From a virus: a stretch of DNA of 64,000 nucleotides. The translations under genes and the position numbers were made by a program. The DNA lies in IMG/VR virus record IMGVR_UViG_3300045988_128837, positions 23,861-87,860 of that record. One strand, given 5' to 3'. Positions 11,550 to 48,856 of the stretch are shown here, piece after piece; the first letter of the stretch is position 1; each line of letters opens with the position of its first letter. The notes beneath the pieces were generated by a model that saw only the letters and a list, made by a program, of their open reading frames with translations, was not told where the DNA came from and did not search any database.

Positions 11550-12764
11550 TTATCCTTCCTGATCTTCTTTGATTTTTTTCACTAAGATTTCTTCAATCTT
11601 CTTTAACTGATCAAGATCATTAAGACGACTAAAGGCGGTAGGTAATCCTTCTTTGGCGAGCTTATCTTTCATTTCCTGTCTTTTTGGAGGGGCTAATTTT
11701 TTGATTCTGTCAGAAATTCGTTTTTTTACATCCTGAACAGAATCTTTTTTGCTAGATGAGCCACTGGATAACATACCAGATTCTTCTTTTTCTGCTTCCT
11801 CTTCGGAAACTGGCTTACCTGCCTCTCCAAGAATTTCTCTCTTATAGATTTTCTGTTCAACATCTACTGCTTTTGTAAGAGCATTACCAAGTGTAAACTC
11901 TTTGTTCCCAACAGAATTATCAATAACTTTCTGCCAAGCTAACATCTGTGGATCTTCTACAATCTCGTTCTTTTTATATGTATGTGTTCTATCTTTCAAT
12001 ATCTGAGCACAAACCATATCAGTTTCACTATCAACGAATGTACGAATTACTGTTTTGGCGTTATAATCCATACCTTTAAATCCGTCAATAATTTTACGAC
12101 CTGTTGTAACAGTTTCTCTTTTACCATCAATCATCTTAGATTCTGTTTCATCTTTTTCTCTTGCTGTTACAACACAATGTGCTCCAGAAGCTAATAAATC
12201 AAGAATTAAATCCTGACCTTTGAAGTTTACAGTCTGGTAATCTTTTAATTCCATACCTGCACCTTCAATTTTGACAAGTCTGGCTTCACCTGTCATATTT
12301 GCAGCATCCGCTTTTACACGATTTCTTTTCTTAGAGAACTCAATCAATCCCTGTTTTGTAGTCAGATTTAAGATTGTTGATCCATCTACAACAATTGCAT
12401 CAGCTCTAAATGGAAGACCATCTGCATCTAAAACTACATCATCAGTTTCTTCTCCATCGTCATCAAGCTCGTAGAAGTCACCGTTTGTTTTAACTGTATC
12501 AATATAATGTCTTACTTCTCCTAAGCTCTGAGTGTAAACAATGTAAATGTTTTCGAGATTTACACCATTTTCCTCTAATTCTGGTAAATAATCATCAATA
12601 CTTCCTGATTCAGAATCTAAATATAAGACTCTGAAAGGTTTCCCATCTGGGCGTTTAAAATACGCTAACTGCATTGCCAGTGTACTTTTACCAGTAAAAG
12701 GTTCTCCATAAATAATAGTCATCAATTTACTCTGTGTTTTTGCTGCTTTTCTTGCTTTTGCCAA
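11550..12764 (-). CDS. AAA_24 / Sak4-like RecA-fold ATPase (ssDNA annealing/recombination) with a C-terminal charged extension.
   Basis: N-terminal MTIIYGEPFTGKSTLAMQLA Walker A typical of phage Sak4/AAA_24. Walker B-like IVVDGS. Confidence 0.55.
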   Translation of the reverse strand: MAKARKAAKTQSKLMTIIYGEPFTGKSTLAMQLAYFKRPDGKPFRVLYLDSESGSIDDYLPELEENGVNLENIYIVYTQSLGEVRHYIDTVKTNGDFYELDDDGEETDDVVLDADGLPFRADAIVVDGSTILNLTTKQGLIEFSKKRNRVKADAANMTGEARLVKIEGAGMELKDYQTVNFKGQDLILDLLASGAHCVVTAREKDETESKMIDGKRETVTTGRKIIDGFKGMDYNAKTVIRTFVDSETDMVCAQILKDRTHTYKKNEIVEDPQMLAWQKVIDNSVGNKEFTLGNALTKAVDVEQKIYKREILGEAGKPVSEEEAEKEESGMLSSGSSSKKDSVQDVKKRISDRIKKLAPPKRQEMKDKLAKEGLPTAFSRLNDLDQLKKIEEILVKKIKEDQEG

Positions 12765-29890: not shown

Positions 29891-29928
29891 AATATACCAC
29901 TTCTTGCACATAGTGTCAATACAAAATC
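29891..29928 (-). promoter_or_regulatory. Sigma-A-like promoter (TTGACA, 17 nt, TATATT) driving the minus-strand gene array.
   Basis: Minus-strand reading: TTGACACTATGTGCAAGAAGTGGTATATTATATT. Shares the GTGCAAGAAGT core with the promoter at 822-859. Confidence 0.5.
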
Positions 29929-29937
29929 TTCAACTTC

Positions 29938-29969
29938 TTGAATATTTTATTTTACATCCTGTATATAAT
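29938..29969 (+). promoter_or_regulatory. Divergent plus-strand promoter (TTGAAT, about 18 nt, TATATAAT) for the HTH gene.
   Basis: Plus-strand reading: TTGAATATTTTATTTTACATCCTGTATATAAT, followed by GGAGG, 8 nt, ATG. Confidence 0.45.
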
Positions 29970-30000
29970 ATGTTACAATATAGATGTGGAGGTATATCAT

Positions 30001-30204
30001 ATGATAAGTTATAAACCGCTTTTCGTAACTTTAGCGAAAAAGGGTATGACAAAATCTGATTTACGAACCGCTTTAAATATGGGGTCTGGTACAATTGCCA
30101 AGATGGCAAAGAATCAGTATATCAGTCTCGAAAACATTGACAAAATTTGCTTATATCTTGATTGCAAAGTTGAAGATGTTATCGAGGTCATACCAAACGA
30201 TTAA
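30001..30204 (+). CDS. XRE/Cro-like HTH DNA-binding protein. The only plus-strand gene in the window; start at MISYKPLF.
   Basis: Strong RBS GGAGGTATATCAT before ATG at 30001. HTH-like GMTKSDLRTALNMGSGTIAKMAKNQYISLENIDKICLYL. Confidence 0.45.
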   Translation: MISYKPLFVTLAKKGMTKSDLRTALNMGSGTIAKMAKNQYISLENIDKICLYLDCKVEDVIEVIPND

Positions 30205-30244
30205 CCAAAAAGACTTTAACCATTTAGGTTGAGGTCTTTTTTAG

Positions 30245-30382
30245 TGGAAACAACAGGAATCGAACCTGTGTCGGCAATTTATATGTGATGAAAATTAAAT
30301 GTAAATAAATAAAAATACTTATATGGAGGTAGAAAAATGAATGTTTATGTATTGCCTGCTCTACCAACTGAGCTATGTTTCC
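30245..30382 (-). tRNA. tRNA-like gene with canonical acceptor, D and T arms but an insertion of about 70 nt between the anticodon-stem strands. Candidate intron-containing tRNA or tRNA pseudogene; possible CAU (Met-type) anticodon. CCA is not encoded.
   Basis: Minus-strand reading: GGAAACA-TA-GCTC-AGTTGGTA-GAGC-A-GGCAA[TACATAA...74 nt...]TTGCC-GAC-ACAGG-TTCGATT-CCTGT-TGTTTCC-A. The acceptor stem pairs 7/7 and the T-loop is canonical. Confidence 0.4.
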
Positions 30383-30399
30383 ATGACTGGCACTTTATA

Positions 30400-30446
30400 C
30401 AACTATATATAGTGGTTCAATAATTGGATAATCACTATATATTGTG
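30400..30446. repeat. Inverted repeat ACAACTATATATAGTG-N17-CACTATATATTGTGT, related to the palindrome at 18597-18643.
   Basis: Read directly from the sequence. Shared core CACAATATATAGTG on the reverse complement of the right arm. Confidence 0.5.
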
Positions 30447-30512
30447 TTTTATAGAGTCATAAAATGCCAGTTTTATGTTTGTGAAATTAATTTTTGTAGA
30501 TGAATTTATTCG

Positions 30513-31247
30513 TTATTTGCGAGCATTTTTCATCTGATCTAATATGGCTTTAGCTTCTTGCTGTCGCTCTTCTTGCTCCATATGATAATCCAATGTTTCT
30601 GCACTAGATTCATACGCAATAGCAACGCCTTTGGATTGTTCGCTAAGTTTCTTTGCTCCTTCTCGAACCTCTTCCAAACCTTCCTGAGCAGCATTTAAAC
30701 TATTGTATTGGTCTAAATTTTTCTGCAATTCTGCAATCTGCTGATCTGCTTCCATCTGGAGAACCACAGTATCTTTTTCACCTTTTAACTTAATGAGCTG
30801 ATCATATGCTTGGTTTTTAATTTCTTCTTGTTTATCTTTTGTTGCTTGCAACTCTGGGATTTTCTTTTCGTACACTGATTTCTGTGCCTTGAGCGTGGCT
30901 AATTTTTGAGCATAATACATTGCTTTTTTATCATCATTGTTATCAATATACTGGTTGATCATTGCCTCGGTTTTAGAAATTTCTTCTTTTGTTTCTTTGA
31001 GGTTATCTTCCATTGTTGCCAATCGACCAGCTACCATTGTGTATGTACCCATTGTTTTCTGGTAGAAATCCTGCTTATCTTTAATTGCAGTATTATATCT
31101 GGCTCTTGCTCCCTCTGGAGTCATTGCATTTTCTTTGATTTTTTCTGTAACTGTTCCAGATGCCACATTTTTAATCTGCTTTCCATTTTTAGTAAATTGT
31201 AAATATGCGATAATCGCTACAATTACACAAATAATAATAATTGTCAT
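30513..31247 (-). CDS. Membrane-anchored coiled-coil protein, PspA/IM30-like.
   Basis: N-terminal TM helix MTIIIICVIVAIIAYL. Long heptad-rich coiled coil resembling PspA/LiaH organisation. Immediately downstream of the flotillin gene. Confidence 0.35.
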   Translation of the reverse strand: MTIIIICVIVAIIAYLQFTKNGKQIKNVASGTVTEKIKENAMTPEGARARYNTAIKDKQDFYQKTMGTYTMVAGRLATMEDNLKETKEEISKTEAMINQYIDNNDDKKAMYYAQKLATLKAQKSVYEKKIPELQATKDKQEEIKNQAYDQLIKLKGEKDTVVLQMEADQQIAELQKNLDQYNSLNAAQEGLEEVREGAKKLSEQSKGVAIAYESSAETLDYHMEQEERQQEAKAILDQMKNARK

Positions 31248-31261
31248 AATAATTTCTCCTA

Positions 31262-32722
31262 TTAGAACTCACGGTAATCTGCTGGCTCTGGTGTTCCAAG
31301 ATTTTCATTATCTGTAGATTCTACTTCTTTATCTTCAGAAACAAAATCTTTTAGCATCTTTGCAAGATCAACACCTGTAGATCCTTTAACACCATCTGAT
31401 ACCTGATTCACAACATTCATAATATCTTTTGTTAATTTTGTTGTGTTTCCTTCTCCATACATAGTGATACTTCCTACATTTCCTAATGGTGCGGCTGCAT
31501 TTTTAACTGCTTCTGGGAACATCTGGCACATCATTTCTACAATAGAAGCTTTACCCATCTGTTTCATAGCTTCTGCTTTCTTTTCGATTGCTTCTGCTTC
31601 AGCAATACCTTTAGCTTTGATTGCCTCGGCTTCTGCTACACCCTTTGCACGAATACCTTCAGCTTCCTGTTCCATAGCATATTTTGTAGATTCAGCTTCT
31701 TTTTCTTTAGCATATTTATTAGCTTCAGATTCTTTCTGTCTCTTGTATAAGTCTGCATCTGCTCTCTGCTGAGAAGCATATTTTTCAGCTTCTGCTTGTT
31801 TCTTAATTTGCGCATCTAATGTCTGCTCTGTTACCTCAACGTCTTTACGCTTCAGTTCAATTTCCTTTTCCTGACGCATAATATTAGCATCCGCAGTTAC
31901 AACTTCAATTTCTTTACGTGATTTTTCTTCCTGAATCTTGTATGCTGCATCTGCCTCAGCCTTCTTTGCTTTTGAAATCTTCTCAAGTTCAGATTTTTTA
32001 ATTTCCAGATTGTTATTCTTTTCTGCGATCGCTGTTTCTGACTCAACCCTTGCATCATTCGCTTCTTTTTCAGCCATTGCTTTTGCTTTTTCAATATCTC
32101 TTTCGCTTTCAGCTCTGGAAATTGCAGCCTTCTTCTGAATTTTAACAACATTATCTACACCAAGATTTTCAATAACATCATTATCATCCATAAAATTCTG
32201 CACATTAAAACTGATGATATCTAATCCCATTGCAGCAAGGTCTGGCTTCGCATTTTCTGTAACAAGCTGTGCAAATTTCTGACGATCAGAAACCATTTCT
32301 TCGAGGCTCATCTTTCCAACGATCTCTCGCATATTACCTTCAAGGACTTCTCTTGCGACCTGTCCAATATCGCCTACTGGCTTATTTAAGAAGTTTTCTG
32401 CTGCAAGTTTTAATCTTTCTGGATTACTGCTAACCTTTACATTGACCGCTGCATCTACATTGATATTGATATAATCTGCTGTAGGCACAGAGCTTGATGT
32501 CTTAACATCAATTGGAATTAACTCAAGATTAAGATGATCTGCTTTTTCAAAGAATGGGATTTTTAACCCTGCCTTACCAATTAATGTCTTAGGTGTCTTT
32601 CTAAGTCCAGAAATAATATAAGCTTTATCTGGACTTGCTTTGACATAACCGCTACCGATAATAGCTCCTACGCCACCTACCGCAATAACCACTGGTACCA
32701 CTGTTCCAATTACTTCAATCAT
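31262..32722 (-). CDS. Flotillin-like SPFH/band-7 protein (FloT/YqiK family).
   Basis: N-terminal TM helix, SPFH domain, long coiled coil with Ala/Glu repeats AEAEAIKAKGIAEAEAIEKKAEAMKQ typical of flotillins. Confidence 0.65.
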   Translation of the reverse strand: MIEVIGTVVPVVIAVGGVGAIIGSGYVKASPDKAYIISGLRKTPKTLIGKAGLKIPFFEKADHLNLELIPIDVKTSSSVPTADYININVDAAVNVKVSSNPERLKLAAENFLNKPVGDIGQVAREVLEGNMREIVGKMSLEEMVSDRQKFAQLVTENAKPDLAAMGLDIISFNVQNFMDDNDVIENLGVDNVVKIQKKAAISRAESERDIEKAKAMAEKEANDARVESETAIAEKNNNLEIKKSELEKISKAKKAEADAAYKIQEEKSRKEIEVVTADANIMRQEKEIELKRKDVEVTEQTLDAQIKKQAEAEKYASQQRADADLYKRQKESEANKYAKEKEAESTKYAMEQEAEGIRAKGVAEAEAIKAKGIAEAEAIEKKAEAMKQMGKASIVEMMCQMFPEAVKNAAAPLGNVGSITMYGEGNTTKLTKDIMNVVNQVSDGVKGSTGVDLAKMLKDFVSEDKEVESTDNENLGTPEPADYREF

Positions 32723-48127: not shown

Positions 48128-48856
48128 TTATTCTTCATCAAGTTCCATATGATTTACATCAACAGGATTCTCTAATTTTAAAATATCTTCTTTCTGTTCT
48201 ACAAGAGCTTGTTGGGCTATTGCATTAATTTTATTCTGTGCAAAAGCCTCGATTTCTCCTTTAGCTTCTGTAATTGTTTTGTCTATCTGATTTTGGAATT
48301 GATCAAAGATAAATTTTGAACTAGATTCAATACATTGAGTCACGTTGGCAAGTCTTCTCAGGATCATTTCTCGATCGCCTTTTCCAATAGATTTCTTCGT
48401 AGTAAAAAGCTCCTTGACTTCATCATAAAATTCTTTTGCATCGCTCATACGCTCGTTCATAGACTCTTTAAATTCATTTGTTATCTGCTGTCTTTTATTG
48501 ATAAAATCCGCTTCGTTAATACGTCCTTTACCACGTAAATATTTAATAGTACATGGAATACCTGTTCCAACATTCATAGAAGTAATTAATTCCGCAAATT
48601 GTGATTGCGACATTTCTACTTCCAGAATCTCATCTTCTCCAACATACCTATCATCATTGAGTCCCCTTATAACCACACCTTCCTTTAATACCATATGGAT
48701 TGTATCGTTATGCTGAATGCTACTGCCAAATAAATTGCTATGCCCGCCATGAGTACGATTGAATGATAACATTCCAAATGATGGGTGTTTATATGATGTT
48801 CCAAGAACATCTTCTGATATTATATAATCTCCTTCTTTCCTAATATTTTTTTCCAT
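48128..48856 (-). CDS. Hypothetical protein.
   Basis: ORF only. Confidence 0.35.
   Translation of the reverse strand: MEKNIRKEGDYIISEDVLGTSYKHPSFGMLSFNRTHGGHSNLFGSSIQHNDTIHMVLKEGVVIRGLNDDRYVGEDEILEVEMSQSQFAELITSMNVGTGIPCTIKYLRGKGRINEADFINKRQQITNEFKESMNERMSDAKEFYDEVKELFTTKKSIGKGDREMILRRLANVTQCIESSSKFIFDQFQNQIDKTITEAKGEIEAFAQNKINAIAQQALVEQKEDILKLENPVDVNHMELDEE

Follow-up and report, generated by a model that had tools for sequence, protein, structure and literature searches.

A tRNA-like gene with an interrupted anticodon loop

The 64,000-nucleotide stretch studied here (the window; positions 23,861 to 87,860 of IMG/VR virus record IMGVR_UViG_3300045988_128837) is a phage genome sequence of ~33% GC, with nearly all of its genes on the minus strand. 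On that strand lies a tRNA-like gene in which 74 nucleotides (nt) occupy the place of the anticodon loop. It forms the end of a minus-strand unit that converges on the gene of a small helix-turn-helix (HTH) regulator. The features of the locus are as follows.

30352..30382, minus strand: 5' tRNA body, consisting of acceptor strand GGAAACA, U8 A9 (TA), the D arm GCTC-AGTTGGTA-GAGC, A26 and the anticodon-stem strand GGCAA (Rfam alignment, ARAGORN with introns allowed, pair counts).
30278..30351, minus strand: insert of 74 nt in place of the 7-nt anticodon loop, predicted to be single-stranded.
30245..30277, minus strand: 3' tRNA body, consisting of the anticodon-stem strand TTGCC, variable loop GAC, the T arm ACAGG-TTCGATT-CCTGT, acceptor strand TGTTTCC and discriminator A73 (Rfam, ARAGORN, pair counts).
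30323..30341, minus strand: pyrimidine-rich insert core UUCAUUUUUCUACCUCCAU, delimited by comparison of the types A, B and C described below; its plus-strand reading, ATGGAGGTAGAAAAATGAA, is what an earlier note on this DNA called a ribosome-binding site (RBS) followed by ATG.
30386..30471, minus strand: leader hairpin, here in its long form, its end 3 nt short of tRNA position +1 (supported by the unit fold and by inverted repeats I1 and I3).
30207..30241, no strand assigned: hairpin terminator common to the HTH and tRNA-like genes (inverted repeat I7, unit fold).
30001..30204, plus strand: Cro/C1-type HTH regulator (HTH_26) of 67 amino acids, convergent with the tRNA-like gene (Pfam PF13443, 1.4e-14).
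30337..30423, plus strand: open reading frame (ORF) of 28 codons, antisense to the 5' tRNA body, with its start behind GGAGGTAGAAAAATG; not a conserved gene.

The Rfam tRNA model RF00005 matches the minus strand at 30245-30382 with 46.4 bits against a gathering score of 29 (E=9.6e-7), aligning 81 nt at a site where the model expects 15. This is the sole Rfam match across the window. Its boundaries are identical to the coordinates of the earlier note, which had correctly described the gene as tRNA-like and as carrying some 70 extra nt in its anticodon region. The acceptor, D and T arms it had quoted, with no strand stated, are all present as minus-strand sequence, where GGCAA and TTGCC do stand 74 nt apart. 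The cloverleaf comprises a 7-bp acceptor stem, a D arm and a T arm, and the tertiary nucleotides U8, A14, G18 G19, G53 U54 U55 C56 and A58 are invariant in the type A alignment. CCA is not encoded, and the variable loop has 3 nt where a canonical tRNA has 4-5 nt or a long arm. The canonical anticodon loop, with 7 nt, U33, a purine at 37 and a 5-bp stem, is absent.

ARAGORN makes no call at this gene with its default settings. When introns are allowed, a check the earlier note had recommended, it does report a 72-nt tRNA with a 67-nt intron, but in two solutions that disagree on the anticodon. The first has the loop UUAUAAA with anticodon AUA and the intron at 32/33; the second has UACAUAA with anticodon CAU, the intron at 37/38 and an A at position 33. 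A U at tRNA position 33 is near-universal. The CAU that had been noted does follow the 5' stem strand, but reading it as an anticodon would put A rather than U at position 33. RNAalifold independently recovers the cloverleaf and the element recurs in more than 80 contigs; the interrupted tRNA-like gene is therefore genuine and beyond chance.

Three types of the element in related phages

A gapped pattern scan of viral contigs (referred to by L numbers) detected a nearly identical interrupted gene in ~30 contigs of 80-166 kb. Where the HTH protein is at least 91% identical, the interrupted gene is found 42 nt past the HTH stop codon in 53 of 53 viral loci, among which no uninterrupted allele occurs; nor did a search of the viral contigs turn up an intact tRNA sharing its D arm and anticodon stem. 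An insert-anchored metagenome scan yielded 32 further contigs, whose sources, where stated, are human-gut assemblies. These contigs were retrieved through the insert sequence only, and both exons are in place in all 29 that were usable.

HTH homologues of 67-77% identity lie in syntenic loci, with a homologous element in the gap after each HTH gene. We distinguish type A (138-142 nt; the window, L217 and L218), type B (217 nt; L214, L219 and L220) and type C (230 nt; L215 and L216). All share the leader hairpin, an identical T arm, A73, and a trailer CTAAAAAAGACC followed by the terminator. The acceptor stem of types B and C is GGAAGTA/TACTTCC and the variable loop TAT, with a D stem of GTTC/GAAC, GTTT/GAAC or GTTT/AAAC; the top of the anticodon stem is GAC/GTC or AGT/ACT, and the inner two pairs are absent. 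Their inserts of 150-165 nt are partly structured and not G-free; in the predicted fold, two closing helices, one with a change that U.G pairing tolerates, are accompanied by an internal hairpin and ~45 nt of single strand. A search of the B and C loci with Rfam at E<=1 gave zero matches, tRNA included.

The element is present in none of 27 loci with HTH proteins of at most 60% identity, and it was not found beside HTH homologues of up to 63% identity, which lie in unrelated contexts. A blastn search of the 800-bp region against 50,697 GenBank phages returned zero matches. Of the nearest public genomes, that of Clostridioides phage pCD1602_4 lacks the element, and MT835469.1 carries only an ordinary, non-syntenic tRNA-Met(CAU). 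When the 25-nt 5' exon was searched against 185,579 reference genomes (species), the single match was an unrelated fragment in a Chitinophagaceae metagenome-assembled genome (MAG), and hence no host tRNA or prophage copy was found. That fragment (L097:2379-2477; JBGSLS010000094.1) is a truncated tRNA of 31 bits that lacks the anticodon arm and overlaps a sub-threshold match to YrlA, a Y RNA-like RNA (30.5 bits). The 25-nt 5' end that it shares with the phage element is probably due to chance.

Two further observations concern HTH relatives. The genomes of these phages hold a second HTH_26 paralogue (55% identical) ~100 kb away, without an adjoining tRNA-like element (L164-L170, L177). On an unrelated viral contig, a distant HTH homologue is adjoined by a DUF3800-VIII RNA (Rfam, 42.6 bits; L173:2701-2765).

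Evidence for selection on the tRNA body

To align the bodies of types A, B and C, each insert was swapped for the same placeholder loop. In this body-only alignment 98% of the cells pair, and both sides have changed in eight pairs: 5-68, 6-67, 11-24, 13-22, 27-43, 28-42, 29-41 and the Levitt pair 15-48. Pair 13-22, for instance, occurs as C-G, U.G and U-A. The count of eight was reached in 0 of 500 shuffles, and slid controls gave 0-3.

Double changes are absent within type A alone. Nine of ten stem transitions in this type (C11U, C13U, C25U, C29U, C42U, C43U, A49G, C50U and C71U) retain a G.U pair on the minus-strand RNA, where the plus strand would have A.C; the flanking mutation spectrum leads one to expect 58%. 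The bias has P = 0.024 when counted as 10 of 11, and ~0.04 on recalculation at 9 of 10 once L208, a contig breakpoint, is removed. At the Levitt pair, G15A (L134 and L184) is followed by C48U in L191, and substitutions in type A loops are confined to positions 15, 20 and 60. These substitution patterns indicate that a tRNA fold is selected on the minus strand, comprising the acceptor, D and T arms, the top three anticodon-stem pairs and pair 15-48.

The insert and its shared pyrimidine-rich motif

Variability in type A was compared with a neutral expectation drawn from base-specific variability at third codon positions of two neighbouring genes. In the 74-nt insert, 10 sites vary where 26.7 would be expected (P about 1e-5), and in its 3'-most 28 nt the numbers are 2 and 9.8. 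Both exons are also depleted of changes, with 5 variable sites against 13.9 expected for the 5' exon and 7 against 14.9 for the 3' exon. Indels in the insert are restricted to A/T runs, and its length is 70-78 nt between the stem strands (63-71 nt by the ARAGORN count). Judged by these counts, the type A insert is under purifying selection and is not junk.

The base composition of the insert RNA is U35 A26 C12 G1; every other 74-nt stretch of the minus strand in the window holds at least two G. The RNAalifold consensus leaves the whole type A insert unpaired. The insert contains seven CAU triplets, a tied window maximum; the only other site with at least seven CAT triplets in a 74-nt stretch lies at 48710-48813 (minus strand). 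UACAU is found twice (P about 0.005, post hoc), which hints at a possible link to the MazF/PemK-like nuclease of the phage, but a genome-wide count showed no depletion of this motif.

The sole insert sequence common to types A, B and C is YCCUYCAU, present in the window as UACCUCCAU. The shared motif takes the form UUCAUUUUUCUACCUCCAU in type A, UUCAUUUUACAUUCCUUCAUU in type B and UUUUACUUACCUUCCUUCAUUC in type C, with the wider form UUCAUUUU..YCCUYCAU. It falls within the predicted single-stranded segment in types B and C, and its context in type A is also unpaired. The minus strand of the 64-kb window has only 4 occurrences of CCTCC.

Other identities for the insert are not favoured. A repeated mobile element finds no second copy in the window. 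Promoter candidates (TTTACA-16-TATAAA or TTTACA-18-TAAATT), rejected as the chief explanation, are weak, without the -7 T or with 9/12 matches, and the spacer ranges over 16-20 nt among the variants. An attP site or integration remnant could be entertained given a tyrosine recombinase 15 kb away, but the insert is under selection and both tRNA halves are complete.

Leader hairpin and terminator

The leader hairpin is found in types A, B and C, 3-4 nt before +1. Read as minus-strand RNA, one of its stem positions passes through U-A, U.G and C-G in turn, whereas plus-strand RNA would have a C.A mismatch in place of the U.G. The hairpin stays linked to the tRNA-like gene in L043 and L060 despite a different upstream gene. 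Together with the 3' trailer and the terminator, it is conserved along with the tRNA-like gene; leader hairpin, cloverleaf and terminator are predicted to fold as three separate modules (z = -4.7). Read by eye from the alignment, both terminator alleles pair at 10/10 positions as plus-strand RNA (counting G.U), whereas as minus-strand RNA each has two C.A mismatches and is not fully paired.

Relatives carry variants of the hairpin, either a short 9-bp form, ACTGGCATT/AATGCCAGT, or ACTGGCAT/ATGCCAGT. The site is dimorphic in the population, with the short 9-bp form alternating with one of ~90 nt that holds ~60 nt of extra, partly palindromic loop sequence (CACTATATATAG...). This was observed for window positions 30386-30471 and the same site in L003, L023, L041, L045, L056, L062, L081, L090 and L092.

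A candidate tRNA-scaffolded non-coding RNA

The gene most likely specifies a tRNA-derived non-coding RNA, its anticodon loop replaced by a domain of 65-165 bases, that is carried by large phages, many of them from the human gut. We put the probability that it is a functional, non-decoding, tRNA-shaped RNA at roughly 0.6. Comparison of the types shows that an accessory domain replaces the anticodon loop and, in some relatives, also the lower anticodon stem. This domain is predicted to display YCCUYCAU as a conserved single-stranded pyrimidine motif.

In the proposed model, the RNA would be transcribed from the minus strand behind the conserved leader hairpin. RNase P would cut 3-4 nt after the hairpin, and RNase Z or transcription termination would define the 3' end. 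The tRNA body would confer defined ends and stability, while the exposed loop would pair with purine-rich Shine-Dalgarno-like sequences (AUGRAGG) or bind a protein. We tentatively propose, at somewhat less than even odds, that these RNAs constitute an undescribed family of natural tRNA-scaffolded regulatory RNAs with at least three types (138, 217 and 230 nt). Here the L-shaped body would serve processing, stability and possibly access to the tRNA machinery, and an anti-Shine-Dalgarno-like loop would act on mRNAs, ribosomes or a protein. The anti-Shine-Dalgarno mechanism specifically is doubtful, though worth considering, and a protein-binding platform or a link to the MazF-like nuclease of the phage are possible alternatives.

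A possible target of the loop is the RBS of the HTH gene, UGGAGGUA, which is the exact 8-mer complement of the loop and extends to 11 bp with one G.U; TGGAGGTA is common to the insert core and this RBS. The evidence does not single it out, and we do not favour the HTH mRNA as the specific target, its 8-11 bp of complementarity being neither distinctive nor accompanied by co-variation.

Several observations weigh against the interpretation of the element as a functional non-decoding RNA, or against parts of the model. Transcription, processing and stability of the RNA are all deduced from sequence. L111 has two disruptive acceptor-stem changes and L212 has C29A in the anticodon stem. Types B and C amount to three distinct, related sequences, and since these lineages are few and related, the eight covarying pairs represent few independent events. 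The combination of conserved exons with a variable insert is also expected of an intron-containing tRNA, and the insert motif could instead serve the plus strand or act as DNA. With regard to the target, the HTH mRNA takes third place among 86 when scored for pairing with the loop (z about -1.7), chance alone often produces G.U-tolerant runs of 11-12 nt, and the HTH RBS shows no co-variation with the motif.

Alternative explanations

It is possible, although we regard it as unlikely, that the element is a processing and termination module. An RNase P cut would then protect the 3' end of the upstream mRNA, as in MALAT1/mascRNA, the insert would load Rho or a nuclease so that transcription stops before colliding with the convergent HTH gene, and the released RNA would be functionless. 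The leader hairpin stands 3-4 nt before +1 in every type and behaves as a minus-strand RNA structure, which fits this proposal, as does the weakness of the shared terminator on the minus strand. Furthermore, the type A insert of ~74 nt is unstructured and far richer in C than in G (12 C, 1 G), resembling a Rho utilisation (rut) site. However, C makes up only 16% of it, and types B and C have inserts that contain G and are in part structured. Neither the conserved pyrimidine motif nor so strictly kept a D arm and Levitt pair would be required for processing alone.

We consider it improbable that the conserved insert acts on the plus strand or as DNA, whether by driving a mini-ORF from an RBS or as a regulatory site connected with the HTH gene, with the tRNA halves as a mere carrier. 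GGAGG occurs on the plus strand only 4 times in 64 kb, and in the insert it is followed by an ATG at ideal spacing; the region of this RBS and ATG resembles the -10/RBS region of the HTH gene itself, and a plus-strand hairpin followed by a T-run lies downstream of the insert. The earlier note had predicted a 25-residue peptide from this start. The ORF has 28 codons in the window, but within type A it ranges from 9 to 46 codons in three reading frames and has lost ATG1 by deletion in the L135 subclade; read by hand, the elements of types B and C offer 2-7 codons or lack a usable start. These varying frames and lengths and the lost ATG1 refute the peptide as a conserved gene, and a plus-strand small protein or type I toxin gene was rejected on the same grounds, neither reading frame nor start codon being conserved. 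Stem substitutions and the wobble states of the leader hairpin match minus-strand RNA only, and the promoter-like hexamers in the insert are weak and variably spaced (16-20 nt).

An equally improbable explanation is a decoding tRNA (CAU or AUA) with a new kind of short phage or bacterial intron, which would either splice itself out or be excised and sealed by an unknown endonuclease and ligase. The pattern of a tRNA body under strong structural selection around an insert that varies in length and sequence between types is intron-like, and ARAGORN accepts the gene once introns are allowed. A normal tRNA(CAU) whose acceptor stem is GGAAA..TTTCC-A occurs in a related gut phage, and the intact phage tRNAs of full length that come nearest in sequence carry Ile or Met annotations, although the placeholder loop in the query itself held CAT. 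Against splicing, no canonical loop can be rebuilt, as CAU requires A33 and U33 gives the anticodon AUA. The 5' junction is not fixed either: an A or G may be added behind the stem, CGU may stand for CAU, and deletions of 1-3 nt occur. Each of the three types, despite identical T arms, would give a different 'anticodon', and types B and C lack the inner two anticodon-stem pairs. The 3-nt variable loop weighs against a decoding tRNA, and purifying selection on the insert itself weighs against an intron. The small spliced intron that had been suggested for this gene is therefore disfavoured by its loop, its variable 5' junction and its type-specific 'anticodons'.

Known intron classes fare no better. 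No group I core, bulge-helix-bulge (BHB) motif or Rfam ribozyme was found, and Rfam intron and ribozyme families give no match at E<=10 in the window region or at E<=1 in the B and C loci. Group I introns measure ~200 nt or more, with a catalytic P3-P8 core and a G-binding site; the insert has 74 nt (150-165 nt in types B and C), and the earlier judgement that it is too short for this class holds. Explicit enumeration yields 0 bulge-helix-bulge arrangements (two 3-nt bulges 4 bp apart at the exon-intron junctions) and the consensus fold leaves the insert unpaired, so that the archaeal-type intron suggested before finds no support, while a permuted or split tRNA is contradicted by halves that stand in normal order on one strand. 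A Pfam scan of ~30 proteins of the window, which is part of a genome of ~160 kb, revealed neither an RNA ligase nor a splicing endonuclease.

Least probable of all is a dead tRNA(CAU)-like gene, broken by insertion and drifting without function: the non-canonical A33, the 3-nt variable loop, the lack of a default ARAGORN call, the disruptive stem changes in L111 and L212 and, in the close clade, an exon conservation that taken alone is not far from that of neighbouring genes are what a decayed tRNA, as also proposed earlier, would show, but compensatory changes in eight pairs including a tertiary one, the bias of type A substitutions to G.U-compatible changes, exons and insert far below base-matched synonymous variability nearby, and retention of the element at the same locus where HTH proteins are only 67-77% identical all speak against it.

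Comparison with known RNAs

Transfer-messenger RNA (tmRNA, SsrA) forms an acceptor/T-arm module from its two ends, has a large internal domain in place of the anticodon arm and is processed by tRNA enzymes; phage versions exist. The phage element resembles it in joining a tRNA-like module with a large internal domain at the position of the anticodon arm. Unlike tmRNA, it retains the whole D stem together with the uppermost part of the anticodon stem, carries A3-U70 in place of G3.U70, and measures 138-230 nt as opposed to ~360 nt. It also lacks pseudoknots, a resume codon and a stable tag ORF, the latter because indels shift every frame. The ARAGORN tmRNA search of the element was negative, and the best score of an Rfam tmRNA-type model was 14 bits against a gathering score of 47.

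Firmicute small RNAs of the RsaE/RoxS type expose a single-stranded C/U-rich motif (CCUCC or CCUUCC) that pairs with Shine-Dalgarno sequences. The phage element likewise exposes a conserved C/U-rich seed in a predicted single-stranded context; it differs in its tRNA body, and the pairing statistics for its candidate target are not distinctive. YrlA, mascRNA and the herpesvirus TMERs, some of them virus-encoded, use tRNA mimicry for processing or protein binding rather than decoding. In YrlA a permuted tRNA-like module is joined to a Ro-binding stem, whereas the phage element has the normal arm order; mascRNA and the TMERs keep a small anticodon arm with any cargo outside the cloverleaf, whereas the phage cargo sits in the anticodon arm. 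Rfam models of YrlA (RF02553, E<=10) and mascRNA found no match in the window region. The tRNA genes with group I or BHB introns also have extra sequence in the anticodon loop of a good tRNA gene, but the phage element has no group I core, BHB motif, rebuildable loop or conserved anticodon.

The engineered tRNA scaffold (Ponchon and Dardel; PMC3753655) has an identical architecture, with a foreign RNA segment replacing the anticodon loop and tRNA-like processing and stabilisation. Such scaffolds are laboratory constructs, while the phage element would be natural and evolutionarily maintained. The closest in architecture are thus tmRNA and the engineered scaffold; we found no description in the literature of a natural RNA with a complete tRNA body and a functional domain in place of the anticodon loop.

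If confirmed, the element would represent a new class of non-coding RNA in phages, overlooked by standard annotation (ARAGORN at default settings, and Rfam for the longer types). It would also provide a handle on gene regulation in abundant uncultured phages of the human gut, and illustrate one route from tRNA genes to new functions. tRNA mimicry has recurred in tmRNA, Y RNAs and viral tRNA-like structures, and an interrupted phage tRNA gene should not automatically be taken for an intron or a pseudogene.

Other interrupted tRNAs and genomic neighbourhood

Unrelated viral tRNA genes with inserts in the anticodon region were also encountered. Those of L051/L093, L005/L025, L019, L052 and L030, two of them from contigs measuring 345-371 kb, combine inserts of 45-60 nt with an intact acceptor stem of 7 bp. 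Each insert contains a stable hairpin, behind which comes a common motif resembling (U)AACAGCA(A/U)U, and the anticodons called by ARAGORN are inconsistent. They may represent another class of interrupted phage tRNA. The tRNA-Tyr(GUA) genes on giant-virus MAG contigs (L006, L018, L057, L075) have eukaryote-type introns right after the anticodon, as expected.

The window encodes DnaE, RecD2, anti-repressors, a PemK/MazF-like protein, an IS110 transposase and a tyrosine recombinase. Its distant kin are Herelleviridae Bacillus phages and a Clostridioides phage, at ~57% amino acid identity in one conserved protein. Divergent promoter-like sites are located at 29891-29979. GGAGG is scarce on the minus (coding) strand of the window, with 16 sites compared to 45 expected from dinucleotide content; the 4 plus-strand sites are at 11686, 29988, 30325 and 39943, and three of these share TGGAGGTA.

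Just upstream of the tRNA-like gene (30476-31300), divergence among relatives rises from ~1-3% to 10-30%. A mosaic junction is found directly upstream of the leader hairpin, and two contigs, L043 and L060, have a wholly different upstream gene; the hairpin, the tRNA-like gene and the HTH gene therefore travel as a block. The upstream genes in the window encode a 244-amino-acid protein with a weak PspA_IM30 match in relatives (30513-31247) and a flotillin/SPFH protein (31262-32722). In L215-L219 the upstream region also encodes TerD, a vWA-TerF-like protein and a cation ATPase. All of these are membrane-stress-type genes, unusual as cargo for a phage.

A low-GC island extends over 40000-46200 (0.29 at 40-42 kb). 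It contains the genes for the PemK/MazF-like endoribonuclease (41651-42160), the IS110 transposase (43025-44311), a metallophosphoesterase (44442-45188) and the tyrosine recombinase (45185-46135), and looks like an acquired defence or mobility island within the phage.

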